From NCBI RefSeq assembly GCF_003334335.1, contig NZ_QOWQ01000053.1: a stretch of DNA of 20,311 nt; one strand, written 5' to 3'. The notes beneath the pieces are model-generated. The model searched no databases, was not told the origin of the DNA, and saw only the letters and a list, made by a program, of their open reading frames with translations. Positions 1 through 13,178 of this stretch are shown one piece after another. This DNA is from Escherichia coli. Lineage in GTDB: Bacteria > Pseudomonadota > Gammaproteobacteria > Enterobacterales > Enterobacteriaceae. A program made the position numbers and the translations under genes. Within the stretch, counting starts at the first letter, position 1, and each line of letters begins with the position of its first letter.

Positions 1-126
1 AGTTATCGTGAGAGTAATTCATCGGCACGTTAAATCATATCAGGCGTAATACCACAACCCTTAAGTTAGCGCTTATGAGTAGTCTCCCCTCCCTGGCTTT
101 CGAAAAAGAAAAAATCGCCGATTCCG

Positions 127-2352
127 GTGCTGGATTTAGCGCCATTAGGCATTGAGCCAATCTGTTATCTGACAGAAGAAATCAGTAATCAACTTTTGGC
201 GAAATATATCTGGTATTCAAAACACATCACGGTTAGCCATGAAGAAAGTACTACCAACCTGTTGGCAAGGATGGGTTTTCAACGACGGATCGCTGGTACA
301 TGTATTAAAGCTCCCGAAGCGGTAGTTGAGGCATGGCTAAATGAAGATTATTCAACCTTACTAAGTGAATTTAAGGTGTTTCATTCACCTACCGGGCATT
401 ATTGGCAGTTGGGGATTTTGACAACATTGCCGCTGGAGAAAGCAGTAAAAGCATGGAATGCCCTTACCCTATCTCCACATACCGATACCGAATACGCCAT
501 GTTACATTTTGGACTCAAAGGGTTACCTGGGTTAGTAAACTCACTTGCACGCTATCCACAAGAAGCCTTGCCCATCACGAATTACTTCGCAGCGAGTGAG
601 CTGGCTCCTGCCGTCGCCCGTGCCTTCAACAAACTGAAAACGCTACGCGAAAACGCCCGTAGCTGGCTGTTGAAATACCCGGAACATGCCCTTACCGGCC
701 TGCTGCCTGCGGCGCTCGGCAAAGCCGGTGAAGCACAGGATAACGCCCGCGCTGCCTTGCGTATGCTTACCGAAAACGGTCATCAGCCATTACTGCAAGA
801 AATCGCCCGACGTTATAACCAGCCGGAAGTAACCGATGCGGTGAACGCTCTGCTTGCGCTCGATCCCTTAGATAATCACCCGACAAAAATCCCCACTCTT
901 CCGGCCTTTTATCAGCCATCGCTCTGGACGCGCCCGGTATTAAAAGCAAATGCCCAATCACTGCCAGATAGCGCCCTCCTCCACCTCGGTGAAATGCTCC
1001 GCTTCCCTCAGGAAGAGGCTCTGTATCCGGGATTATTGCAGGTGAAAGACGTCTGTTCCGCCGACTCACTGGCGGGATTTGCCTGGGATCTGTTTACCGC
1101 CTGGCAGACCGCTGGCGCGCCGTCGAAAGAGAGTTGGGCGTTCACTGCGTTAGGCGTTCTCGGTAACGATGACACCGCCCGCAAACTGACGCCATTAATA
1201 CGCGCCTGGCCTGGTGAATCCCAGCATAAACGCGCCACCGTTGGGTTGGATATTCTCGCTGCTATCGGTAGTGATATCGCCCTTATGCAGCTTAACGGCA
1301 TCGCCCAGAAACTGAAATTCAAAGCATTACAGGAGCGGGCAAAAGAAAAAATTGCCGACATTGCCGAGAGCCGCGAACTCACGGTGGCGGAGCTTGAAGA
1401 TCGGTTAGCACCGGATCTCGGTCTGGATGATAACGGTTCGCTGCTGCTGGATTTTGGCCCACGGCAGTTCACCGTCAGCTTTGATGAAACCTTAAAACCG
1501 TTTGTGCGTGATGTTTCCGGCAGCCGCCTGAAAGACCTGCCCAAACCGAACAAAAGCGATGATGAAACGCGGGCGAACGATGCGGTTAACCGCTACAAAT
1601 TGCTGAAAAAAGATGCGCGTACCATCGCCGCCCAGCAGGTAGCAAGGCTGGAATCCGCCATGTGCCTGCGCCGCCGCTGGTCGCTGGAAAACTTCCAGCT
1701 CTTCCTGGTTGAGCATCCGCTGGTTCGTCACTTAACCCGCCGTCTGATTTGGGGCGTTTATAGCGCCGAAAACCAGCTACTGGCTTGCTTTCGCGTAGCA
1801 GAAGATAACAGCTACAGCACCGCTGACGATGATCTTTTCACCCTGCCGGAAGGCGATATCTCTATCGGCACTCCTCACGTTCTGGAAATATCACCAACGG
1901 ATGCTGCCGCCTTTGGTCAGCTTTTTGCCGACTACGAACTGCTACCACCGTTCCGCCAGCTCGACCGTAACAGCTACGCCCTGACAGAAGCCGAGCGCAA
2001 TGCCAGTGAACTGACCCGCTGGGCAGGCAGAAAATGCCCGAGTGGTCGGGTCATGGGGCTGGCGAATAAAGGCTGGATAAAGGGCGAACCACAGGATGGA
2101 GGCTGGATCGGATGGATGATCAAACCTTTGGGTCGCTGGTCGTTAATCATGGAAATCGACGAAGGTTTTGCGGTGGGTATGTCACCAGCCGAACTTAGCG
2201 CTGAGCAGCTCTTAAGCAAGCTGTGGTTATGGGAAGGCAAAGCGGAAAGCTATGGCTGGGGGAGTAATTCAACACAGGAAGCGCAGTTCTCCGTACTCGA
2301 TGCCATCACCGCCAGCGAGCTAATTAACGATATTGAAGCCCTGTTTGAATAA
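127..2352 (+). CDS. molR: Large DUF4132-family protein, tandem paralog of YehI (MolR/YehH-like); possibly the 3' part of a disrupted longer gene
   Basis: Open 741-codon frame from GTG at 127 to TAA at 2350-2352. Its C-terminal half aligns motif for motif with the C-terminal half of the next ORF (GEMLRF, FAWDLFTAWQ.AGAP, DFGPRQFTV.FDE, RRWSL, FADYE..PPFRQL). All three plus-strand frames contain stops within positions 1-80, so no longer upstream frame is continuous here. Gene symbol is from recall of K-12 gene order. Confidence 0.65.
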   Translation: MLDLAPLGIEPICYLTEEISNQLLAKYIWYSKHITVSHEESTTNLLARMGFQRRIAGTCIKAPEAVVEAWLNEDYSTLLSEFKVFHSPTGHYWQLGILTTLPLEKAVKAWNALTLSPHTDTEYAMLHFGLKGLPGLVNSLARYPQEALPITNYFAASELAPAVARAFNKLKTLRENARSWLLKYPEHALTGLLPAALGKAGEAQDNARAALRMLTENGHQPLLQEIARRYNQPEVTDAVNALLALDPLDNHPTKIPTLPAFYQPSLWTRPVLKANAQSLPDSALLHLGEMLRFPQEEALYPGLLQVKDVCSADSLAGFAWDLFTAWQTAGAPSKESWAFTALGVLGNDDTARKLTPLIRAWPGESQHKRATVGLDILAAIGSDIALMQLNGIAQKLKFKALQERAKEKIADIAESRELTVAELEDRLAPDLGLDDNGSLLLDFGPRQFTVSFDETLKPFVRDVSGSRLKDLPKPNKSDDETRANDAVNRYKLLKKDARTIAAQQVARLESAMCLRRRWSLENFQLFLVEHPLVRHLTRRLIWGVYSAENQLLACFRVAEDNSYSTADDDLFTLPEGDISIGTPHVLEISPTDAAAFGQLFADYELLPPFRQLDRNSYALTEAERNASELTRWAGRKCPSGRVMGLANKGWIKGEPQDGGWIGWMIKPLGRWSLIMEIDEGFAVGMSPAELSAEQLLSKLWLWEGKAESYGWGSNSTQEAQFSVLDAITASELINDIEALFE

Positions 2353-2361
2353 GGAAAGAGC

Positions 2362-5300
2362 ATGGACAAGGAATTACCGTGGCTGGCGGATAACGCCCAA
2401 CTGGAACTGAAATATAAAAAAGGCAAAACACCACTCAGTCATCGCAAATGGCCGGGCGAACCGGTGCCTGTTATCACTGAAAGCATCATTCAGACACTGG
2501 GTGATAAATTGCTACAAAAAGCTGAGAAGAAAAAAAACATTGTCTGGCGTTATGAAAATTTTTCACTGGAGTGGCAGTCCGCCATCACGCAGGCCATCAA
2601 CTTGATCGGCGAACACAAACCCTCAATCCCGGCCCGGACAATGGCGGCGCTAGTCTGTATCGCGCAAAATGACAGCCAACAGTTGCTCGACGAAATCGTC
2701 CAACAAGAGGGACTGGAATATGCGACTGAGGTGGTGATTGCACGCCAGTTTATTACACGATGTTATGAGAGTGATCCTCTGCTAGTGACATTGCAGTATC
2801 AGGACGAGGATTATGGCTATGGTTATCGCTCAGAAACCTATAACGAATTCGATCTCCGACTGCGTAAGCATCTCTCTCTGGCAGAGGAAAGCAGCTGGCA
2901 GCGTTGCGCCGACAAACTCATTGCCGCACTGCCAGGAATACCCAAAATTCGCCGTCCTTTTATTGCACTACTCCTCCCGGAAAAACCTGAAATAGCCAAT
3001 GAACTCGCCAGTCTTGAAAGCTCCCGGTCAAGTCTCCATTCAAAGGAGTGGTTAAAGGTCATTGCTACTGATAATACGGCGGTAAAAAAACTCGAACGAT
3101 ACTGGGGCCTGGACGTATTTAGCGATCGCGAAGCCAGCTACATGTCACAAGAAAACCGCTTCGGCTACGCGGCCTGCGCCTCCCTTTTGCGCGAACAAGG
3201 ACTGGCAGCCGTTCCGCGCCTGGCAATGTATGCCCATAAAGAAGATTGCGGCAGTCTGCTGGTACAAATTAACCATCCGCAAGTCATCCGCACCTTGCTA
3301 CTGGTGGCTGATAAAAACAAACCCAGCCTGCAACGTGTGGCTAAATACAGTAAAAACTTCCCCCACGCGACGCTCGCCGCACTGGCAGAACTGCTGGCGT
3401 TAAAAGAACCACCAGCCCGCCCAGGTTATCCAATCATCGAAGACAAAAAGCTGCCTGCACAGCAAAAAGCACGCGATGAATACTGGCGTACGCTGTTACA
3501 AACGCTGATGGCATCGCAGCCACAACTGGCAGCAGAAGTGATGCCGTGGTTAAGTACTCAAGCCAGGGCAGTGCTGAATAGTTATTTATCGGCACCGCCA
3601 AAACCGGTTATTGATAGCACCGATAACAGCAGTCTGCCTGAAATGCTCGTTTCACCACCGTGGCGTAGTAAGAAAAAAATGACAGCTCCACGTCTTGATT
3701 TGGCACCGCTCGAATTAACTCCGCAAATTTACTGGCAACCAGGCGAACAAGAGAGGCTTGCCGCCACTGAATCTGCCCGTTATTTCAGCACGGAATCTCT
3801 TGCGGAACGCATGGAACAAAAAAGTGGACGAGTTGTATTACAGGAACTGGGTTTTGGGGATGATGTATGGCTGTTTCTGAATTATATACTCCCCGGAAAA
3901 CTGGATGCTGCACGCAATTCACTCATTGTTCAGTGGCATTACTACCAGGGGCGGGTTGAAGAGATCCTGAATGGCTGGAACTCCCCGCAAGCACAATTAG
4001 CAGAACAGGCGCTCCGCAGCGGTCACATAGAAGCGTTAATTAACATATGGGAAAATGACAACTTCTCACGTTATCGTCCGGAAAAGAGTGTCTGGAACCT
4101 GTATTTATTGGCACAGTTGCCGCGTGAGATGGCTTTGACCTTCTGGCTGCGTATCATTGAGAAAAAGCATCTGTTCGCGGGTGAGGACTATTTTCTCAGT
4201 ATCCTCGGATTGGATGCGCTACCAGGTCTGCTGTTGGCTTTTTCACATCGTCCAAAAGAAACATTTCCGTTAATTTTAAATTTTGGCGCAACAGAACTGG
4301 CGCTGCCTGTTGCCCGCGTCTGGCGACGTTTCGCGGCGCAGCGTGATCTGGCTCGCCAGTGGATTTTACAATGGCCGGAACATACGGCTAGTGCACTTAT
4401 CCCTCTTGTCTTTACCAAACCCAGCGATAATAGCGAAGCCGCATTACTTGCCCTGCGTTTACTGTACGAACAGGGACATGGCGAATTGCTACAAACCGTG
4501 GCAAACCGCTGGCAGCGTACAGATGTATGGTCTGCCCTGGAGCAGTTGCTTAAACAGGGTCCAATGGACATTTACCCGGCACGCATTCCAAAAGCCCCTG
4601 ATTTCTGGCATCCGGCAATGTGGTCCAGGCCTCGACTTATCACTAATAATCAGCCTGTTACCGGTGACGCTCTGGAAATTATCGGCGAAATGCTGCGCTT
4701 TACCCAGGGGGGACGTTTTTATAGCGGGCTGGAACAACTGAAAACGTTCTGCCAGCCACAAACGCTGGCAGCTTTTGCCTGGGATCTCTTCACTGCGTGG
4801 CAACAAGCTGGTGCCCCCGCAAAAGACAACTGGGCATTTCTGGCGTTAAGTCTCTTTGGTGACGAAAGCACGGCACGGGATCTGACGACACAGATCCTCG
4901 CCTGGCCACAAGAAGGCAAATCTGCCCGTGCTGTCAGCGGCCTGAACATCCTTACCCTGATGAATAATGATATGGCGCTGATACAGCTGCATCATATATC
5001 GCAACGGGCTAAATCCCGCCCCTTACGTGATAACGCGGCGGAATTTCTTCAGGTGGTCGCAGAAAATCGCGGGCTAAGCCAGGAAGAGCTAGCGGACAGA
5101 TTAGTCCCAACCCTGGGCCTTGATGATCCGCAGGCGTTGAGTTTTGATTTTGGTCCCCGGCAGTTTACCGTTCGCTTCGATGAAAACCTCAACCCGGTTA
5201 TCTTTGATCAGCAAAACGTTCGCCAGAAAAGCGTTCCCCGGTTGCGCGCCGATGACGATCAACTGAAAGCGCCCGAGGCACTGGCCCGACTAAAAGGGCT

Positions 5301-5985
5301 AAAAAAAGATGCTACTCAGGTGAGCAAAAACCTGCTCCCGCGTCTTGAAGCTGCCCTACGTACCACCCGACGCTGGTCGCTGGCAGATTTTCATTCTCTG
5401 TTTGTTAATCATCCCTTTACCCGTCTGGTTACCCAGCGATTAATATGGGTGGTTTATCCGGCAAATGAACCGCGTTGTTTACTCAAAGCCTTTCGTGTGG
5501 CCGCAGAGGGGGAGTTCTGCAATGCGCAAGATGAGCCAATTGACCTGCCTGCGGACGCTCTGATTGGCATTGCCCACCCGTTAGAAATGACAGTAGAAAT
5601 GCGCAGTGAATTTGCACAGCTTTTTGCCGATTACGAAATTATGCCGCCTTTTCGCCAGTTGTCGCGCCGCACGGTGCTGCTCACACCTGACGAGTCAACC
5701 AGTAACAGCCTGACTCGCTGGGAAGGTAAATCCGCTACCGTTGGGCAGCTTATGGGAATGCGATACAAAGGCTGGGAGTCAGGCTATGAGGACGCATTTG
5801 TGGGCGAGTACCGGCTGGTCCTTAAGTTTTCACCCGGTTTTAACCACTACAATGTTGATAGCAAAGCGTTAATGAGCTTCCGTTCTCTTCGAGTGTACCG
5901 TGACAATAAATCCGTCACTTTTGCCGAACTTGATGTGTTTGATTTGAGTGAGGTGTTAAGCGCACCTGACGTCATTTTCCATTAA
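2362..5985 (+). CDS. yehI: Large DUF4132-family protein YehI (1207 aa), function unknown
   Basis: ATG at 2362 lies 9 nt after the upstream stop and is preceded by AAGGAAAGAG (RBS). Long uninterrupted frame; size and sequence match my recollection of E. coli YehI; paralogous to the upstream ORF. Confidence 0.85.
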   Translation: MDKELPWLADNAQLELKYKKGKTPLSHRKWPGEPVPVITESIIQTLGDKLLQKAEKKKNIVWRYENFSLEWQSAITQAINLIGEHKPSIPARTMAALVCIAQNDSQQLLDEIVQQEGLEYATEVVIARQFITRCYESDPLLVTLQYQDEDYGYGYRSETYNEFDLRLRKHLSLAEESSWQRCADKLIAALPGIPKIRRPFIALLLPEKPEIANELASLESSRSSLHSKEWLKVIATDNTAVKKLERYWGLDVFSDREASYMSQENRFGYAACASLLREQGLAAVPRLAMYAHKEDCGSLLVQINHPQVIRTLLLVADKNKPSLQRVAKYSKNFPHATLAALAELLALKEPPARPGYPIIEDKKLPAQQKARDEYWRTLLQTLMASQPQLAAEVMPWLSTQARAVLNSYLSAPPKPVIDSTDNSSLPEMLVSPPWRSKKKMTAPRLDLAPLELTPQIYWQPGEQERLAATESARYFSTESLAERMEQKSGRVVLQELGFGDDVWLFLNYILPGKLDAARNSLIVQWHYYQGRVEEILNGWNSPQAQLAEQALRSGHIEALINIWENDNFSRYRPEKSVWNLYLLAQLPREMALTFWLRIIEKKHLFAGEDYFLSILGLDALPGLLLAFSHRPKETFPLILNFGATELALPVARVWRRFAAQRDLARQWILQWPEHTASALIPLVFTKPSDNSEAALLALRLLYEQGHGELLQTVANRWQRTDVWSALEQLLKQGPMDIYPARIPKAPDFWHPAMWSRPRLITNNQPVTGDALEIIGEMLRFTQGGRFYSGLEQLKTFCQPQTLAAFAWDLFTAWQQAGAPAKDNWAFLALSLFGDESTARDLTTQILAWPQEGKSARAVSGLNILTLMNNDMALIQLHHISQRAKSRPLRDNAAEFLQVVAENRGLSQEELADRLVPTLGLDDPQALSFDFGPRQFTVRFDENLNPVIFDQQNVRQKSVPRLRADDDQLKAPEALARLKGLKKDATQVSKNLLPRLEAALRTTRRWSLADFHSLFVNHPFTRLVTQRLIWVVYPANEPRCLLKAFRVAAEGEFCNAQDEPIDLPADALIGIAHPLEMTVEMRSEFAQLFADYEIMPPFRQLSRRTVLLTPDESTSNSLTRWEGKSATVGQLMGMRYKGWESGYEDAFVGEYRLVLKFSPGFNHYNVDSKALMSFRSLRVYRDNKSVTFAELDVFDLSEVLSAPDVIFH

Positions 5986-6046
5986 AAACACAGCGGGCAG
6001 TGATGCAACTGCCCGTTATCAACACGACTTACCAGCGGGGAAAGCG

Positions 6047-6364
6047 ATGATCGTGCAAAAAGAGCTGGTTGCTATTTACGATTATGAGGTCCCTGTACCT
6101 GAAAATCCGTTTTCCTTCAGACTTGAGATCAATAAATGCTCTGAATTATTTACAGGTTCCGTCTATCGACTGGAGCGATTCCGGCTACGTCCAACATTTC
6201 ATCAACGTGATCGAGAAGATGCTGACCCGCTAATAAATGATGCGTTGATTTATATAAGAGATGAGTGTATTGATGAGCGGAAATTACGAGGTGAATCACC
6301 TGAAACTGTAATAGCAATTTTTAATCGTGAACTACAGAATATATTCAACCAAGAAATAGAATAA
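6047..6364 (+). CDS. yehK: Small protein YehK (105 aa), function unknown
   Basis: ATG at 6047 preceded by GGGGA 6 nt upstream. 105-codon ORF that is visibly more AT-rich than its flanking genes. Followed by an intrinsic terminator. Confidence 0.7.
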   Translation: MIVQKELVAIYDYEVPVPENPFSFRLEINKCSELFTGSVYRLERFRLRPTFHQRDREDADPLINDALIYIRDECIDERKLRGESPETVIAIFNRELQNIFNQEIE

Positions 6365-6533
6365 TATACTCTAAATAATTCAAATTGGTCCGATCCGGCG
6401 CAACGTCCCAATGGCCTGGATTATAAATCTCATTATCTTAATTGCAACGGGGTCCAGCCGTGGTTATAATTCGTTCGTTGGAACACGATGTTGCACAGGC
6501 TGCGGTGTTGGGCCTGAAAATAGTAAATAAAAG

Positions 6534-6559
6534 AACCTGCCTCACCAGCAGGTTTTTTT
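6534..6559 (+). terminator. Rho-independent terminator after yehK
   Basis: Stem AACCTGC (6534-6540), loop CTCACCA, stem GCAGGTT (6548-6554), then a T-run (TTTTTTTATTT). An A-rich tract (AAATAAAAG) lies upstream, so it could act in both directions. Confidence 0.7.
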
Positions 6560-6670
6560 ATTTACTGTGATCTGCTTTCCAGATATTTTCCGCTCAAACA
6601 ACTAATGCGCCAAACATTTATTGCGCGTAAAATATCGTTTATTTCATTAATACATTTCAGGGATGAATAT

Positions 6671-7759
6671 ATGTCACCGCAGAATAATCATCTGCAGCGT
6701 CCGCCTGCTGCTGTGTTATACGCCGATGAACTGGCAAAATTAAAACAAAATGATAACGCACCTTGCCCGCCCGGTTGGCAGTTAAGTTTGCCTGCGGCCC
6801 GTGCTTTTATCCTTGGCGATAGCGCGCAAAATATTAGCCGTAAAGTGGTGATTAGTCCCTCCGCTGTCGAACGCATGTTAGTCACTCTTGCCACCGGGCG
6901 CGGTTTGATGTTGGTGGGGGAACCTGGCACCGCAAAATCTCTCCTGTCTGAATTACTGGCAACCGCTATTAGCGGCGATGCCGGGTTAACCATCCAGGGC
7001 GGCGCATCTACTACCGAAGATCAAATCAAGTACGGCTGGAACTACGCCCTGCTTATCAATCATGGTCCATCAACGGAAGCGCTGGTCCCTGCCCCGCTTT
7101 ACCAGGGAATGCGCGACGGCAAAATCGTCCGTTTTGAAGAGATAACGCGTACACCGCTGGAAGTGCAAGACTGTCTGTTAGGTATGCTTTCTGACAGGGT
7201 GATGACGGTGCCGGAACTCACTGGTGAAGCCAGTCAGCTCTATGCGCGAGAAGGCTTTAATATTATTGCCACTGCCAATACCCGCGATCGCGGCGTCAAT
7301 GAAATGAGTGCTGCGCTAAAGCGTCGCTTCGATTTTGAAACTGTCTTTCCGATTATGGATTTCGCCCAGGAGCTGGAGCTTGTCGCCAGTGCTTCGGCGC
7401 GTTTGCTGGCCCATAGCGGTATTCCGCATAAAGTGCCTGACGCGGTACTGGAGTTACTGGTCCGCACCTTCCGCGATCTGCGTGCCAACGGCGAAAAGAA
7501 AACGTCAATGGATACACTAACAGCGATTATGTCCACCGCTGAAGCCGTGAACGTGGCCCACGCCGTAGGCGTCCGCGCCTGGTTTTTAGCGAATCGCGCA
7601 GGTGAGCCAGCCGACCTGGTGGACTGCATTGCCGGAACCATCGTCAAAGATAACGAAGAAGATCGCGCTCGTCTGCGCCGTTACTTCGAACAACGAGTCG
7701 CCACACATAAAGAAGCTCACTGGCAGGCTTATTATCAAGCCCGCCACCGCCTGCCGTGA
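6671..7759 (+). CDS. yehL: MoxR-type AAA+ ATPase YehL (362 aa)
   Basis: Walker A GEPGTAKS and a Walker B-like hhhhFEE (IVRFEEITR) are present. ATG at 6671 preceded by AGGGA. The ORF-track start at 6605 has no RBS and would add 22 residues. Confidence 0.85.
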   Translation: MSPQNNHLQRPPAAVLYADELAKLKQNDNAPCPPGWQLSLPAARAFILGDSAQNISRKVVISPSAVERMLVTLATGRGLMLVGEPGTAKSLLSELLATAISGDAGLTIQGGASTTEDQIKYGWNYALLINHGPSTEALVPAPLYQGMRDGKIVRFEEITRTPLEVQDCLLGMLSDRVMTVPELTGEASQLYAREGFNIIATANTRDRGVNEMSAALKRRFDFETVFPIMDFAQELELVASASARLLAHSGIPHKVPDAVLELLVRTFRDLRANGEKKTSMDTLTAIMSTAEAVNVAHAVGVRAWFLANRAGEPADLVDCIAGTIVKDNEEDRARLRRYFEQRVATHKEAHWQAYYQARHRLP

Positions 7760-7769
7760 GGAAAGATGC

Positions 7770-10049
7770 ATGAGCGAGCCGTTAATTGTCGGCATCCGGC
7801 ATCATAGTCCGGCCTGCGCCCGGCTGGTGAAATCGTTAATCGAAAGCCAGCGGCCACGATACGTATTGATTGAAGGCCCGGCTGATTTTAATGACCGGGT
7901 AGACGAACTGTTTTTAGCCCACCAGCTTCCGGTAGCTATTTACAGTTATTGCCAGTATCAGGACGGTGCAGCCCCCGGGCGTGGTGCCTGGACGCCATTT
8001 GCTGAATTTTCGCCGGAGTGGCAGGCGCTACAAGCCGCACGTCGTATTCAGGCACAAACTTACTTCATCGATTTGCCTTGCTGGGCGCAGAGTGAAGAAG
8101 TGGACGATTCGCCTGATACGCAAGAGGAAAGCCAGGCCTTGCTGCTGCGTGCCACCTGCATGGATAACAGCGACACCCTGTGGGATCACTTGTTCGAAGA
8201 TGAAAGCCAGCAAACTGCATTACCCTCTGCACTGGCGCACTATTTTGCCCAACTGCGGGGCGACTCCCCCGGAGATGCTCTCAATCGTCTGCGCGAAGCC
8301 TTTATGGCCCGCTGGATTGGATGGGCGATGCAGCAAAATAATGGCGACGTGTTAGTTGTCTGCGGTGGCTGGCACGCTCCGGTACTGGCAAAAATGTGGC
8401 GCGAATGCCCGCAGGAAATTAACACGCCAGAATTGCCGTCGCTGGCAGATGCCGTTACAGGTTGTTATCTCACCCCCTACAGTGAAAAGCGCCTTGATGT
8501 GCTGGCAGGATACCTTTCCGGAATGCCTGCCCCGGTCTGGCAAAACTGGTGCTGGCAGTGGGGCTTACAGCAGGCGGGAGAACAACTGCTAAAAACGGTT
8601 CTCACCCGTTTGCGCCAGCACAAGTTGCCTGCTTCGACCGCGGATATGGCTGCCGCTCATCTGCATGCGATGGCACTGGCACAGTTGCGCGGTCATACAC
8701 TACCGTTACGCACTGACTGGCTGGATGCCATAGCAGGATCGCTGATTAAAGAAGCCCTGAATGCGCCGTTGCCGTGGAGCTATCGCGGCGTTATTCATCC
8801 CGACACCGATCCGATTCTGCTAACGTTGATAGACACATTAGCGGGTGACGGATTCGGTAAACTTGCCCCTTCTACGCCACAACCTCCTCTGCCAAAAGAT
8901 GTCACCTGCGAACTGGAACGTACCGCAATCTCCCTTCCGGCGGAGCTTACCTTAAATCGCTTTAACCCCAATGGACTAGCGCAAAGTCAGGTGTTACATC
9001 GGCTGGCAATACTGGAGATCCCAGGGATTGTGCGCCAGCAGGGAAGCACACTGACACTTGCAGGCAACGGTGAAGAACACTGGAAATTAACCCGCCCGCT
9101 TAGCCAGCATGCGGCATTGATTGAGGCCGCCTGCTTTGGTGCCACACTCCAGGAAGCCGCACGCCATAAATTAGAAGCCGATATGCTGGACGCGGGTGGA
9201 ATCGGCAGTATCACCACATGTCTTAGCCAGGCGGCGTTAGCGGGTCTGGCGTCCTTCAGTCAACAATTACTGGAGCAACTCACATTATTAATCGCCCAGG
9301 AAAATCAATTTGCCGAAATGGGCCAGGCGCTGGAAGTGCTATATGCCTTATGGCGGCTGGATGAAATTAGCGGTATGCAAGGCGCGCAGATATTACAAAC
9401 GACGTTATGCGCGGCTATCGATCGCACGCTGTGGCTGTGTGAATCTAACGGCAGACCGGATGAAAAGGAGTTTCACGCTCACCTGCATAGCTGGCAAGCG
9501 CTTTGCCATATTCTGCGCGATCTACATAGCGGCGTTAATTTATCCGGCGTTTCGCTTTCTGCGGCGGTAGCCTTACTGGAGCGACGCAGTCAGGCGATTC
9601 ATGCCCCGGCGCTGGATCGCGGCGCGGTTCTTGGCGCACTAATGCGTCTGGAACATCCCAACGCCAGTGCCGAAGCGGCGCTGACGATGCTGGCGCAGTT
9701 ATCCCCGGCACAATCCGGCGAGGCGCTGCACGGTTTGCTGGCATTAGCCCGTCATCAACTGGCCTGTCAGCCGGCATTTATCGCCGGTTTCAGCAGTCAT
9801 TTAAATCAACTAAGTGATGCCGATTTTACCAATGCCCTGCCCGATTTACGCGCGGCAATGGCCTGGCTACCGCCACGAGAACGCGGGACGCTGGCGCATC
9901 AGGTGCTTGAGCATTATCAACTGGCGCAACTTCCCGTTTCGGCACTGCAAATGCCGTTGCATTGTCCACCGCAAGCCATTGCACATCATCAACAACTCGA
10001 ACAGCAGGCACTGGCATCGCTGCAACACTGGGGAGTTTTCCATGTCTGA
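7770..10049 (+). CDS. yehM: YehM, large protein (759 aa) of unknown function
   Basis: ATG at 7770 is 10 nt after the yehL stop, with GAGGA immediately upstream. The ORF-track start at 7602 would overlap yehL by 158 nt. The stop overlaps the yehP start (ATGTCTGA). Confidence 0.8.
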   Translation: MSEPLIVGIRHHSPACARLVKSLIESQRPRYVLIEGPADFNDRVDELFLAHQLPVAIYSYCQYQDGAAPGRGAWTPFAEFSPEWQALQAARRIQAQTYFIDLPCWAQSEEVDDSPDTQEESQALLLRATCMDNSDTLWDHLFEDESQQTALPSALAHYFAQLRGDSPGDALNRLREAFMARWIGWAMQQNNGDVLVVCGGWHAPVLAKMWRECPQEINTPELPSLADAVTGCYLTPYSEKRLDVLAGYLSGMPAPVWQNWCWQWGLQQAGEQLLKTVLTRLRQHKLPASTADMAAAHLHAMALAQLRGHTLPLRTDWLDAIAGSLIKEALNAPLPWSYRGVIHPDTDPILLTLIDTLAGDGFGKLAPSTPQPPLPKDVTCELERTAISLPAELTLNRFNPNGLAQSQVLHRLAILEIPGIVRQQGSTLTLAGNGEEHWKLTRPLSQHAALIEAACFGATLQEAARHKLEADMLDAGGIGSITTCLSQAALAGLASFSQQLLEQLTLLIAQENQFAEMGQALEVLYALWRLDEISGMQGAQILQTTLCAAIDRTLWLCESNGRPDEKEFHAHLHSWQALCHILRDLHSGVNLSGVSLSAAVALLERRSQAIHAPALDRGAVLGALMRLEHPNASAEAALTMLAQLSPAQSGEALHGLLALARHQLACQPAFIAGFSSHLNQLSDADFTNALPDLRAAMAWLPPRERGTLAHQVLEHYQLAQLPVSALQMPLHCPPQAIAHHQQLEQQALASLQHWGVFHV

Positions 10050-11178
10050 ACTGAACGATCTTCTGACCACCCGTGAGCTACAACGCTGGCGATTAATTCT
10101 TGGCGAAGCGGCAGAAACGACGCTTTGTGGGCTGGATGACAACGCCCGGCAGATAGACCACGCGCTGGAGTGGCTGTATGGGCGCGATCCTGAACGGCTC
10201 CAGCGTGGTGAACGCTCCGGTGGATTAGGTGGCTCAAATCTCACCACCCCTGAGTGGATCAACAGTATTCACACGCTGTTTCCGCAACAGGTGATTGAGC
10301 GGCTGGAAAGCGATGCCGTACTGCGCTACGGCATTGAAGATGTGGTGACAAATCTCGACGTGCTGGAACGTATGCAGCCTTCCGAAAGCCTGCTACGCGC
10401 CGTTTTGCACACCAAACATCTGATGAATCCCGAAGTACTGGCTGCCGCCCGCCAGATAGTGCGCCAGGTTGTTGAAGAAATTATGGCGCGACTGGCAAAG
10501 GAAGTTCGCCAGGCTTTTTCTGGTGTCCGCGATCGCCGTCGCCGTTCATTTATTCCACTGGCGCGAAACTTTGATTTCAAAAGTACTCTGCGCGCCAACC
10601 TGCAACACTGGCACCCGCAACACGGCAAGTTGTATATCGAATCCCCCCGCTTTAACAGCCGCATTAAACGCCAAAGCGAACAATGGCAACTGGTCTTACT
10701 GGTTGATCAAAGCGGATCGATGGTCAATTCGGTGATCCACTCTGCGGTGATGGCGGCCTGTTTGTGGCAGTTACCCGGCATTCGTACCCATCTGGTGGCG
10801 TTTGACACAAGCGTCGTTGATCTCACGGCAGACGTTGCCGATCCGGTAGAGTTATTAATGAAAGTACAGTTGGGCGGCGGGACCAATATCGCCAGTGCCG
10901 TGGAGTATGGTCGGCAACTTATTGAACAACCAGCGAAAAGCGTCATTATCCTCGTGAGCGATTTTTACGAAGGGGGTTCATCATCATTACTGACGCATCA
11001 GGTGAAAAAGTGTGTCCAGAGCGGCATCAAAGTGCTGGGACTGGCAGCGCTCGATAGCACCGCAACACCTTGCTATGACCGCGATACGGCCCAGGCGCTG
11101 GTTAATGTCGGCGCACAAATAGCCGCCATGACGCCGGGCGAGCTGGCATCATGGCTTGCGGAGAATCTTCAGTCATGA
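10042..11178 (+). CDS. yehP: von Willebrand factor A (vWA) domain protein YehP (378 aa)
   Basis: MIDAS-like DxSxS motif (LVDQSGSM) followed by a G-G-T-N element, typical of vWA folds. Start ATG at 10042 overlaps the yehM stop by 8 nt. Confidence 0.85.
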   Translation: MSELNDLLTTRELQRWRLILGEAAETTLCGLDDNARQIDHALEWLYGRDPERLQRGERSGGLGGSNLTTPEWINSIHTLFPQQVIERLESDAVLRYGIEDVVTNLDVLERMQPSESLLRAVLHTKHLMNPEVLAAARQIVRQVVEEIMARLAKEVRQAFSGVRDRRRRSFIPLARNFDFKSTLRANLQHWHPQHGKLYIESPRFNSRIKRQSEQWQLVLLVDQSGSMVNSVIHSAVMAACLWQLPGIRTHLVAFDTSVVDLTADVADPVELLMKVQLGGGTNIASAVEYGRQLIEQPAKSVIILVSDFYEGGSSSLLTHQVKKCVQSGIKVLGLAALDSTATPCYDRDTAQALVNVGAQIAAMTPGELASWLAENLQS

Positions 11179-13178
11179 ATTCACTACGTCCGGAATTATT
11201 AGAACTGACACCACAGGCCCTGACGGCGTTAAGCAATGCCGGTTTTGTTAAGCGCAGTCTTAAGGAACTGGAAAATGGCAACGTCCCGGAGATCAGCCAT
11301 GAGAACGACGCTTTAATCGCCACCTTCAGTGACGGTGTCCGTACCCAGCTGGCGAACGGCCAGGCACTGAAAGAGGCTCAGTGCAGTTGCGGGGCCAACG
11401 GTATGTGCCGTCATCGCGTGATGCTGGTGTTAAGTTATCAACGACTTTGTGCCACCACTCAGTCTACGGAAAAAGAAGAAGAGTGGGATCCGGCAATCTG
11501 GCTGGAAGAACTGGCTACCCTTCCCGATGCTACCCGCAAACGCGCACAGGCACTGGTCGCTAAAGGCATCACCATTGAGTTGTTCTGTACGCCGGGCGAA
11601 ATTCCCTCTGCCCGCTTACCGATGAGCGATGTGCGTTTTTATTCCCGTAGCAGCATTCGTTTCGCCCGTTGTGATTGTATTGAAGGCACACTTTGCGAAC
11701 ATGTCGTACTGGCAGTACAGGCCTTTGTCCAGGCAAAAGCGCAGCAAGCGGAATTGACTCATTTAATCTGGCAGATGCGCAGCGAACACGTCACATCATC
11801 TGACGATCTGTTTGCCAGCGAAGAAGGCAAAACGTGTCGTCAATATGTTCAGCAACTAAGCCAGGCATTATGGCTGGGCGGCATCAGCCAGCCGCTTATT
11901 CACTACGAGGCCGCTTTCAGCCGCGCGCAGCAAGCAGCGGAACGCTGCAACTGGCGATGGGTGAGTGAATCGCTACGGCAACTGCGCGCCAGCGTTGATG
12001 CCTTCCACGCCCGCGCCAGCCACTATCATGCCGGAGAATGCTTACGTCAGCTTGCGGCATTAAACAGTCGATTAAATTGCGCACAAGAGATGGCGCGGCG
12101 CGACAGTGTTGGTGAAGTTCCTCCTGTGCCGTGGCGCACGGTCGTTGGCTCTGGCATTGCCGGAGAAGCAAAGCTTGATCATCTGCGGCTGGTGTCTTTA
12201 GGTATGCGTTGCTGGCAGGATATTGAGCATTATGGTTTACGCATCTGGTTTACCGATCCCGACACCGGCAGTATTTTGCACCTTTCGCGCAGTTGGCCGC
12301 GAAGTGAACAGGAAAACTCACCGGCAGCTACGCGTCGGCTGTTTAGTTTTCAGGCTGGCGCACTGGCGGGTGGGCAAATTGTTTCACAAGCAGCAAAACG
12401 CAGTGCCGATGGCGAGCTGCTGTTAGCTACCCGCAACCGCTTAAGCAGCGTTGTGCCGCTGTCGCCTGATGCCTGGCAAATGTTGAGCGCGCCGTTACGC
12501 CAGTCGGGCATTGTGGCTTTGCGGGAATATTTACGCCAGCGTCCCCCCTCCTGCATACGGCCTCTTAATCAGGTCGATAACTTATTTATTCTGCCGGTCG
12601 CTGAGTGTATTTCGCTCGGTTGGGATAGCAGCCGCCAGACGCTGGATGCGCAGGTAATCAGCGGCGAAGGTGAAGATAATCTGCTGACGTTATCACTGCC
12701 AGCCTCAGCCAGCGCGCCTTATGCCATTGAACGCATGGCGGCGCTTTTGCAACAAACAGACGACCCCGTGTGTCTGGTTTCTGGCTTTGTCAGTTTTGTT
12801 GATGGGCAATTGACACTGGAACCACAGGTAATGATGACAAAGACTCGTGCCTGGGCGCTGGACGCAGAAACTGCGCCTGTGGTGGCATCACTACCTTCTG
12901 TCAGCGTTCTGCCTGTGCCGTCTACTGCTCATCAGTTGCTGATGCGCTGCCAGGCATTACTTATTCAACTGCTCCATAACGGCTGGCGCTATCAGGAACA
13001 GAGTGCTATTGGTCAGGCAGAGTTGCTGGCGAATGACCTCACCGCGGTGGGTTTTTATCGGCTGGCACATGTATTGGGACAATTTCGTAATACAGAAAGC
13101 GAGGCACGGGTAGAAGCAATGAATAACTGCGTTTTGCTGTGCGAACAATTATTCCCCATGCTTCAGCAACAAGGATGA
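11175..13178 (+). CDS. yehQ: SWIM zinc-finger protein YehQ (667 aa as called here)
   Basis: Two CxC...CxH signatures (CSCGANGMCRHRVM and CDCIEGTLCEHVV) characteristic of SWIM zinc fingers. ATG at 11175 overlaps the yehP stop (ATGA). GGAG lies 11 nt upstream. The alternative in-frame ATG at 11151 is less well placed. Confidence 0.8.
   Translation: MNSLRPELLELTPQALTALSNAGFVKRSLKELENGNVPEISHENDALIATFSDGVRTQLANGQALKEAQCSCGANGMCRHRVMLVLSYQRLCATTQSTEKEEEWDPAIWLEELATLPDATRKRAQALVAKGITIELFCTPGEIPSARLPMSDVRFYSRSSIRFARCDCIEGTLCEHVVLAVQAFVQAKAQQAELTHLIWQMRSEHVTSSDDLFASEEGKTCRQYVQQLSQALWLGGISQPLIHYEAAFSRAQQAAERCNWRWVSESLRQLRASVDAFHARASHYHAGECLRQLAALNSRLNCAQEMARRDSVGEVPPVPWRTVVGSGIAGEAKLDHLRLVSLGMRCWQDIEHYGLRIWFTDPDTGSILHLSRSWPRSEQENSPAATRRLFSFQAGALAGGQIVSQAAKRSADGELLLATRNRLSSVVPLSPDAWQMLSAPLRQSGIVALREYLRQRPPSCIRPLNQVDNLFILPVAECISLGWDSSRQTLDAQVISGEGEDNLLTLSLPASASAPYAIERMAALLQQTDDPVCLVSGFVSFVDGQLTLEPQVMMTKTRAWALDAETAPVVASLPSVSVLPVPSTAHQLLMRCQALLIQLLHNGWRYQEQSAIGQAELLANDLTAVGFYRLAHVLGQFRNTESEARVEAMNNCVLLCEQLFPMLQQQG

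Follow-up and report, generated by a model that had tools for sequence, protein, structure and literature searches.

The molR/yehI-yehLMPQ locus of Escherichia coli: a conserved MoxR-vWA cassette with an undescribed set of accessory proteins

A five-component unit and its spread

The stretch of Escherichia coli DNA analysed in this work (contig NZ_QOWQ01000053.1, 20,311 nucleotides, referred to here as the window) carries, in this order, the 3' part of molR, yehI, yehK, yehL, yehM, yehP, yehQ and yehR, followed by yehS, btsR and btsS on the opposite strand, and by mlrA. The system described below is formed by molR/yehI and yehLMPQ, the latter being annotated in RefSeq as the same four genes. 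YehL is an AAA+ ATPase of the MoxR class and YehP is a protein with a von Willebrand factor A (vWA) domain; the remaining components are YehM, a DUF5682 protein, YehQ, which carries SWIM motifs, and the DUF4132 proteins MolR and YehI. Together, molR/yehI and yehLMPQ constitute a five-component unit that is conserved from E. coli to the actinobacteria. What we rate as new is the conserved and undescribed accessory set that surrounds a known MoxR-vWA motor.

Open reading frames (ORFs) and junctions were taken straight from the sequence. The genes yehL (6671..7759), yehM (7770..10049), yehP (10042..11178) and yehQ (11175..13178) are all located on the plus strand; yehL and yehM are separated by a gap of 10 nt (7760-7769), yehM and yehP overlap by 8 nt (ATGTCTGA, 10042-10049), and yehP and yehQ by 4 nt (ATGA, 11175-11178). 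These coordinates, as well as the gap and both overlaps, had been proposed in a sequence-only reading of the window, and direct inspection of the letters bears them out. For yehL and yehQ the annotated start was used; an alternative in-frame ATG is present 22 codons upstream of the first one, at 6605, and another 8 codons upstream of the second, at 11151, which would extend the overlap with yehP to 28 nt.

Upstream of these genes and on the same strand, the window begins with the 3' part of molR (also known as yehH; 1..2352), an ORF that ends at 2352 and belongs to a giant WGR and DUF4132 protein; its 5' end, the WGR domain and a LexA box lie upstream of the window. The full gene, as found in the near-identical strain E. 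coli PEC1009 (locus L001, 550-4344), encodes 1264 residues, with the WGR domain at residues 6-69 (E 1e-17) and DUF4132 at residues 988-1173 (E 3e-50). The next gene, yehI (2362..5985, plus strand), encodes a DUF4132 protein of 1207 residues (Pfam, E 8e-47), which is a paralogue of MolR without the WGR domain; both proteins are 38% identical over 1185 residues, and YehI starts after residue 110 of MolR. The YehI protein of PEC1009 (L001 4354-7986) has 1210 residues, although this strain is otherwise 100% identical to the window; the two lengths imply a 9-nt in-frame indel somewhere in yehI, and that the window does not come from exactly this strain.

The spread of the cassette was surveyed with a YehM alignment against one genome per GTDB species. 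At least 537 species have a relative, and the best 80 loci of these (at least 537) were kept; gene order was then established from the six-frame ORFs of the 80 loci, plus three loci obtained from other look-ups, searched with the E. coli proteins. The surveyed loci belong to gamma- and betaproteobacteria, to metagenome-assembled genomes (MAGs) of the myxobacterial type, and to many actinobacteria. The homologues of yehL, yehM, yehP and yehQ are collinear, on a single strand and accompanied by DUF4132 genes of the MolR/YehI type in 75 of the 83 loci. Some variation is covered by this count: the DUF4132 gene comes after YehQ in four Burkholderia loci, DUF4132 genes are found at either end of the set in two loci, and a Salinispora locus has an additional pair upstream. 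Contig ends interrupt the majority of the loci outside the 75. The median gaps between L and M, M and P, and P and Q are zero or negative. The sequence-only reading had considered yehLMPQ as a coupled four-gene unit; the coupling holds and the four genes are found together in different genomes with great consistency, but the unit has five components, given that MolR/YehI is included in it. The genes flanking the cassette vary among genera, which indicates that it is self-contained.

The number of tandem DUF4132 paralogues ranges from one to five per locus (two in E. coli and three in Klebsiella), and copies with and without WGR are mixed. At least one of these proteins carries a WGR domain, usually at its start, in 53 of 77 loci, or 53 of the 62 that are assessable, as the first gene is cut by the end of the locus in the other 15. 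Variation in the copy number of the MolR-like genes, which occupy approximately positions 1-8900 upstream of YehL, was observed at L013, L017, L022, L043, L049, L052-L054, L059-L061, L066 and L082, among other loci. L042 and L045, from MAGs of the myxobacterial type, showed L-M-P with neither YehQ nor a MolR-like gene next to them, also when profile hidden Markov models were used, although the ORF maps of these high-GC loci are noisy.

Conservation decreases in the order YehL, YehP, and then YehM and YehQ at a similar level, with 8, 19, 42 and 44 clusters, respectively, at 75% identity. The ratios of nonsynonymous to synonymous substitution rates (dN/dS) against Escherichia whittamii are 0.034 for yehL, 0.088 for yehM, 0.049 for yehP and 0.079 for yehQ; hence the four genes evolve under purifying selection. 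Within the species, a 7.3-kb region of the locus is present with at least 80% coverage in 5203 of 5426 complete E. coli genomes (96%). Relatives of YehM are essentially absent from phages, where a single weak match was obtained, and outside the main chromosome they occur only on megaplasmids or chromids.

Two distant variants of the cassette help to delimit its core. A Rhizobium plasmid (L087 5125-12451) carries genes for SWIM, DUF5691, AAA, DUF5682 and VWA proteins, in this order, and a Hymenobacter plasmid (L088 4183-12422) carries those for DUF5691 (1009 residues), AAA, a hypothetical protein, DUF5682 and VWA, with no separate SWIM gene annotated. In both variants DUF5691 takes the place of DUF4132, and in Rhizobium the SWIM protein has moved to the front; since these distant variants swap the other parts, the invariant core can be defined as AAA_5, DUF5682 and VWA_CoxE. 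The idea that DUF5691 is a diverged MolR or YehQ was rejected, as no significant profile match was obtained with the Rhizobium and Hymenobacter proteins; the SWIM module alone aligns in register, and weakly (E 0.018). A second, divergent cassette was observed in Salinispora cortesiana (L077 2890-7973) directly upstream of the canonical L-M-P-Q genes, with vWA, AAA_5 and a weak DUF5682-like gene, followed by a short DUF4132-only gene (7957-8853); this arrangement could reflect an older duplication, and a family that extends beyond the canonical cassettes.

The small gene yehK (6047..6364, plus strand; 105 residues) lies between yehI and yehL, and its membership in the system is uncertain. Matches to YehK were obtained only at three Escherichia loci (L001, L006 and L007), the protein has no family match in NCBIfam or PADLOC, and its dN/dS value in the comparison mentioned above is 0.23. 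An ORF of 145 residues without a Pfam match is located between the MolR-like gene and the YehL homologue of a Variovorax locus (L004 8387-8824), the same position that yehK has in E. coli.

The MoxR-vWA core and the predicted folds of YehM and YehQ

YehL matches the AAA_5 family with an E value of 2.6e-34 (Pfam), and its Walker A motif (GEPGTAKS, 6917-6940), Walker B motif (VRFEEITR, 7127-7150), sensor-1 residue N203 and arginines R218/R219 are invariant in 79 to 81 of 81 sequences. Its closest relatives of solved structure, according to a PDB sequence search, are the AAA modules of midasin (E 3e-10 to 9e-9), followed by the MoxR structure 2r44 (E 6e-4). YehP is a CoxE-type vWA protein (VWA_CoxE, E 5e-72, Pfam) with a complete metal-ion-dependent adhesion site (MIDAS) motif, its DxSxS element being encoded at 10705-10719; the MIDAS residues D222-x-S224-x-S226, T281 and D307 are kept in 82 of 83 sequences. 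The yehP gene sits two genes downstream of yehL, within the same coupled operon, and this partnership is kept in 82 loci. Therefore, the MoxR-class and vWA/MIDAS assignments made from the sequence alone are well supported.

This core cannot itself be called undescribed, because YehL, as founding member, gave its name in 2006 to one of the seven MoxR subfamilies (Snider and Houry 2006, as cited in PMC3893208). The sequence-only reading had presented the operon as a candidate for an undescribed system, without an assigned function; the first part of this proposal does not apply to the MoxR-vWA core, whereas the second one does hold, as no published function for yehLMPQ was found in the literature searched. 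The same literature contains no mention of DUF5682, no link between DUF4132 or MolR and yehLMPQ, and no description of a TIKI-like or OB-like fold for these proteins; likewise, NCBIfam and PADLOC scans of eight proteins returned nothing specific.

The MoxR-class ATPase with intact catalytic motifs, encoded near a vWA protein with a complete MIDAS, is shared with the pairs RavA-ViaA, CbbQ-CbbO, NorQ-NorD and CoxD-CoxE. The yeh system differs from them in that a TIKI/TraB-like DUF5682 protein is encoded between the ATPase and the vWA genes, in the presence of a protein with SWIM and tandem-OB modules and of giant WGR-DUF4132 proteins, which are partners not reported for those pairs, and in the lack of a client enzyme gene near the cassette. 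The AAA_5 motor and the MIDAS logic of YehL-YehP are also shared with midasin/Rea1, the eukaryotic ribosome-assembly AAA+ protein with a C-terminal MIDAS domain. However, midasin is a single polypeptide with six AAA modules, while the motor and the MIDAS of the yeh system reside in two small proteins, for which no sign of a ribosomal target was seen.

The only Pfam family matched by YehM is DUF5682 (E 1e-97); no TraB-family match was detected at the sequence level in Pfam, and no solved structure related by sequence was found for YehM in single-sequence and profile searches of the PDB. A confident AlphaFold model was obtained, in which an N-terminal alpha/beta domain (approximately residues 1-240, 7770-8489) similar to those of the TIKI/TraB/ChaN/erythromycin-esterase group is followed by a helical solenoid of the HEAT/ARM type. 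The N-terminal domain is predicted to have a central parallel beta-sheet flanked by helices, the feature by which the fold of this superfamily is recognised (PMC6254334), and the invariant residues H11, H12, E35 and H202 are located at strand ends in the model. These characteristics suggest that YehM is possibly a hydrolase of the His/Glu type, either a protease or an esterase. The joining of such a domain to a solenoid of approximately 500 residues, and its presence within a MoxR-vWA operon, set YehM apart from the TIKI/TraB/PrgY/ChaN/erythromycin-esterase superfamily. YehM had previously been considered to have no recognisable motif; this view has to be abandoned in light of the predicted TIKI/TraB/ChaN-like domain, the HEAT-like solenoid and the invariant His, Glu and Asp residues. 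Many clusters of truncated YehM proteins exist, with hundreds of members, and in E. coli TUM18780 (NZ_AP023197.1) an IS4-like insertion sequence, IS421, is inserted in yehM, leaving two annotated DUF5682 fragments.

Regarding YehQ, two SWIM motifs had been noticed from the sequence (motif 1 at 11382-11414 and motif 2 at 11670-11702); both are present, with weak support in Pfam (E 1.3e-3 and 0.21). The first one, C70-x-C72-x5-C78-x-H80, is kept in 76 of 77 sequences and is thus a conserved trait of the protein; the second one, C166-x-C168...C174-x-H176, is kept in only 40 of 77, which makes it lineage-specific. No solved structure related to YehQ by sequence was found in single-sequence and profile PDB searches. 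A model built from 44 sequences (predicted local distance difference test, pLDDT, 92.9; predicted template-modelling score, pTM, 0.90) was compared with known structures using Foldseek, and the top ranks were occupied by tandem-OB DNA binders, with approximately 230-260 aligned columns and marginal E values (1.5e-3 to 0.1). These relatives include the HIN domains of p202/Ifi202, AIM2 and MNDA, the DBD-A/B domains of RPA70, baculovirus LEF-3, CST and POT1. According to this model, YehQ is predicted to be composed of the SWIM module or modules, a helical bundle, a tandem OB-fold-like module (approximately residues 330-560, 12162-12854) and a C-terminal helical bundle. The structure predictions suggested for both proteins in the sequence-only reading yielded a TIKI-like/HEAT-like fold for YehM and a tandem OB-like module for YehQ; both folds are predictions, and the scores of the fold matches are moderate. 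The YehQ homologues of E. coli and Shigella vary in length from approximately 605 to 709 residues at 87-92% identity, which suggests indel polymorphism or repeated truncation within the species.

Regulation and decay of the locus in E. coli

The LexA-type box upstream of molR (AACTGGATAAAATTACAGGG, with the form CTG-N10-CAG) is located in PEC1009 at L001 523-542, 10 nt upstream of the molR ATG, and molR is among the LexA-regulated genes with a known SOS box (PMC6590174). No LexA-type box was seen upstream of yehL. A conserved SOS control of the family was considered and rejected: a scan of 85 loci for CTGT-N8-ACAG returned only the box of the E. coli molR gene, and the same result was obtained when the 300 nt upstream of each cassette were inspected for CTG-N10-CAG or for the actinobacterial GAAC-N4-GTTC-type box. 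Hence, the SOS wiring is lineage-specific and not a trait of the family. Furthermore, yehK and yehL are separated in E. coli by a spacer of 306 nt with the terminator of a small RNA (sRNA), so that the SOS control of molR need not reach yehLMPQ. Outside E. coli, the DUF4132 protein DRA0166 and the WGR protein DR2173 of Deinococcus radiodurans are DdrO targets that are induced by mitomycin C in an IrrE-dependent manner (PMC8533742).

The spacer between yehK and yehL is AT-rich. Expression of yehL and yehM is increased in an hns/stpA mutant, and the H-NS site is intergenic (PMC3686432); in contrast, BglJ-RcsB activates the promoter of molR, which H-NS does not repress (PMC3950696). The sRNA gene in this spacer is of the OrzO-P antitoxin type (6484..6559, plus strand; Rfam RF02083, 101 bits, E 4e-16), and shows its own promoter-like site (6442-6470) and a hairpin (6534-6554) followed by a T-run. 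This sRNA is not part of the machine, but sits within its promoter region. No convincing small hydrophobic ORF that could correspond to the Zor toxin was found beside it in this strain, which seems to keep an orphan antitoxin sRNA. The spacer measures 736-814 bp in other E. coli strains versus approximately 306 bp here, or else extra copies of the sRNA are found elsewhere. In Shigella sonnei, zorO is listed as adjoining yehL, and lineages 2 and 3 lack yehM, yehL and zorO (PMC12795559).

Decay is also evident in the laboratory strain K-12 MG1655, where molR is split into yehF, which contains the WGR part, and a yehH pseudogene (L086 2475-6270), and yehQ (L086 15101-16945) encodes 614 residues, without the last 52 residues of the 667-residue protein of the window. 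K-12 is probably a natural mutant, defective for this system; given the split molR and the truncated yehQ, any phenotype would probably have been missed in screens carried out with K-12.

Possible roles of the system

The reading that we favour, with a probability of roughly 0.4, is that the five components form an ATP-driven MoxR-vWA remodeller guided by nucleic acid, with YehM as scaffold and possible hydrolase. By analogy with CbbQ-CbbO, NorQ-NorD and midasin, YehL would form a ring that acts through YehP as vWA/MIDAS adaptor, and this ring would pull on a target or reshape it. YehQ, through its SWIM and OB modules, and MolR, through WGR, would recruit a target on nucleic acid, most likely DNA that is damaged, broken or single-stranded, or else a protein trapped on such DNA. 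YehM would be the scaffold, and it might act on the target as a His/Glu hydrolase (protease or esterase). In E. coli, H-NS would normally keep the unit silent, and the LexA box of molR would connect it in part to the SOS response. The best-known relatives of WGR, SWIM and tandem OB modules contact nucleic acid, and for this reason the predicted folds point to DNA or to DNA-bound proteins as the target; this link is built on domain analogy and on membership in two regulons, one of which concerns proteins that are outside a full cassette.

Several observations weigh against this reading. The second SWIM motif of YehQ is absent from half of the family and nine actinobacterial loci have no detectable WGR; LexA-type boxes upstream of the cassette were not found outside Escherichia, and in E. 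coli itself the spacer with its sRNA terminator stands between the SOS-controlled region and yehL.

The same sensing modules could serve a different purpose, and it had been raised from the sequence that the operon might belong to the conflict systems dependent on nucleoside triphosphates. In an anti-phage or anti-mobile-element system of this kind, WGR and SWIM/OB would sense invading DNA and the MoxR-vWA motor would activate YehM as a hydrolase effector. Predicted conflict systems include the MoxR-vWA ternary systems as an accepted class (PMC10910872), and several features of the yeh locus are in agreement with such a role, i.e., a patchy spread in at least roughly 0.5% of species with genus-specific flanks, a promoter region silenced by H-NS (PMC3686432), a number of tandem DUF4132 paralogues that varies from 1 to 5, the fact that YehQ and MolR/YehI are the fastest-evolving components, and the frequent decay represented by the K-12 defects, the IS421 insertion and the Shigella deletion. 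However, none of the PADLOC-DB 2.0 families matched any of the eight proteins with E values up to 0.01, no VMAP family was detected in YehM with Pfam and the bpMoxR match of YehL is marginal (E 0.002), and no recognisable toxic effector, such as a nuclease, a TIR domain or a pore former, was found. Moreover, 96% of the complete E. coli genomes have the locus at one conserved site, which is not typical of defence islands; it hardly occurs in phages, among plasmids it is restricted to megaplasmids, and its dN/dS values are low. The vWA-MoxR-VMAP ternary systems (Kaur et al. 2020, as cited in PMC10910872) also combine a MoxR ATPase and a vWA protein with extra partners in a multi-gene cassette; the yeh cassette differs in that it has no detected VMAP family, effector-associated domains or PADLOC match, and it is core in E. 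coli. With 5203 of 5426 E. coli genomes carrying the region and one weak phage match, the suggestion is not supported by these data, and we consider this role unlikely.

Class I chelatases, such as CobN-CobS-CobT and BchH-BchI-BchD, are built from three parts, namely a small ATPase of the AAA+ type, a vWA subunit with a MIDAS, and a large partner with approximately 1200-1400 residues. The yeh system mirrors this architecture, with an ATPase, a vWA protein and a partner of that size range, and it could accordingly be imagined as a chaperone for the insertion of a cofactor or metal centre, chelatase-like or CoxD-CoxE-like, in which MolR/YehI would be a giant substrate holder and which may involve the use of molybdenum. 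The best family of YehP is VWA_CoxE, a weak match of this protein to a putative cobaltochelatase model was obtained in the NCBIfam scan, AAA_5, the Pfam class of YehL, also includes CbbQ, NorQ and GvpN, and haem is bound by ChaN, which is structurally close to the YehM domain. In addition, molR owes its name to a phenotype in molybdate utilisation (Lee et al. 1990, as cited in PMC7824862 and PMC8533742). Nevertheless, the searches revealed no resemblance of MolR/YehI to CobN/BchH or to a protein of solved structure (only WGR and DUF4132 in Pfam, no match in NCBIfam and none in a PDB sequence search), and the yeh system has two extra components. No molybdoenzyme, CO dehydrogenase or tetrapyrrole gene is annotated beside the cassette in E. 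coli, Burkholderia, Variovorax or Serratia; particularly, the CO dehydrogenase genes that accompany CoxD-CoxE-CoxF are missing, the E. coli neighbours being metG, yehR, yehS and btsSR, and no cox gene was found in the annotated flanks of the other three genera. In Deinococcus, molybdenum genes did not follow the DUF4132 and WGR genes (PMC8533742). This explanation, which also leaves the WGR, SWIM and OB modules without a role, is doubtful in our opinion.

Equally doubtful is a RavA-ViaA-like chaperone that would assemble or disassemble an ordinary cellular complex unrelated to DNA, with SWIM, OB and WGR as protein-protein modules: experiments on MoxR proteins do indicate that they help particular complexes to mature (PMC3893208), contacts between proteins can be made by SWIM and OB folds, and a place in the core genome of E. 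coli agrees with a cellular role, but no candidate client gene is conserved beside the cassette, and the system, which H-NS silences, has broken down in K-12 and Shigella at no obvious cost.

Returning to the nucleic-acid-guided remodeller, a much more specific version of it can be formulated, although we regard it as a long shot. The cassette would be a bacterial segregase-protease directed to DNA lesions, in which WGR, as in PARP, and the SWIM/tandem-OB protein, as in RPA and the HIN sensors, would sense broken or single-stranded DNA or trapped proteins, the MoxR-vWA motor would extract the latter, and the TIKI-like YehM would cleave them. If this were true, the system would be a prokaryotic functional analogue, made of unrelated parts, of the p97-SPRTN/Wss1 route for DNA-protein crosslinks.

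E. coli has few large, conserved systems of several genes to which no function has been assigned, and yehLMPQ together with molR/yehI are one of them; their function is now open to experimental testing. The unit is recast here as one of five components, folds are proposed for two proteins that had been blank, i.e., YehM as a putative hydrolase on a HEAT scaffold and YehQ as a SWIM protein with a tandem OB module, and the system is tied to two independent DNA-damage regulons. If the DNA-directed reading proves to be true, it would represent a new ATP-driven bacterial machine for DNA damage or DNA surveillance, and a new job for the MoxR-vWA motors.

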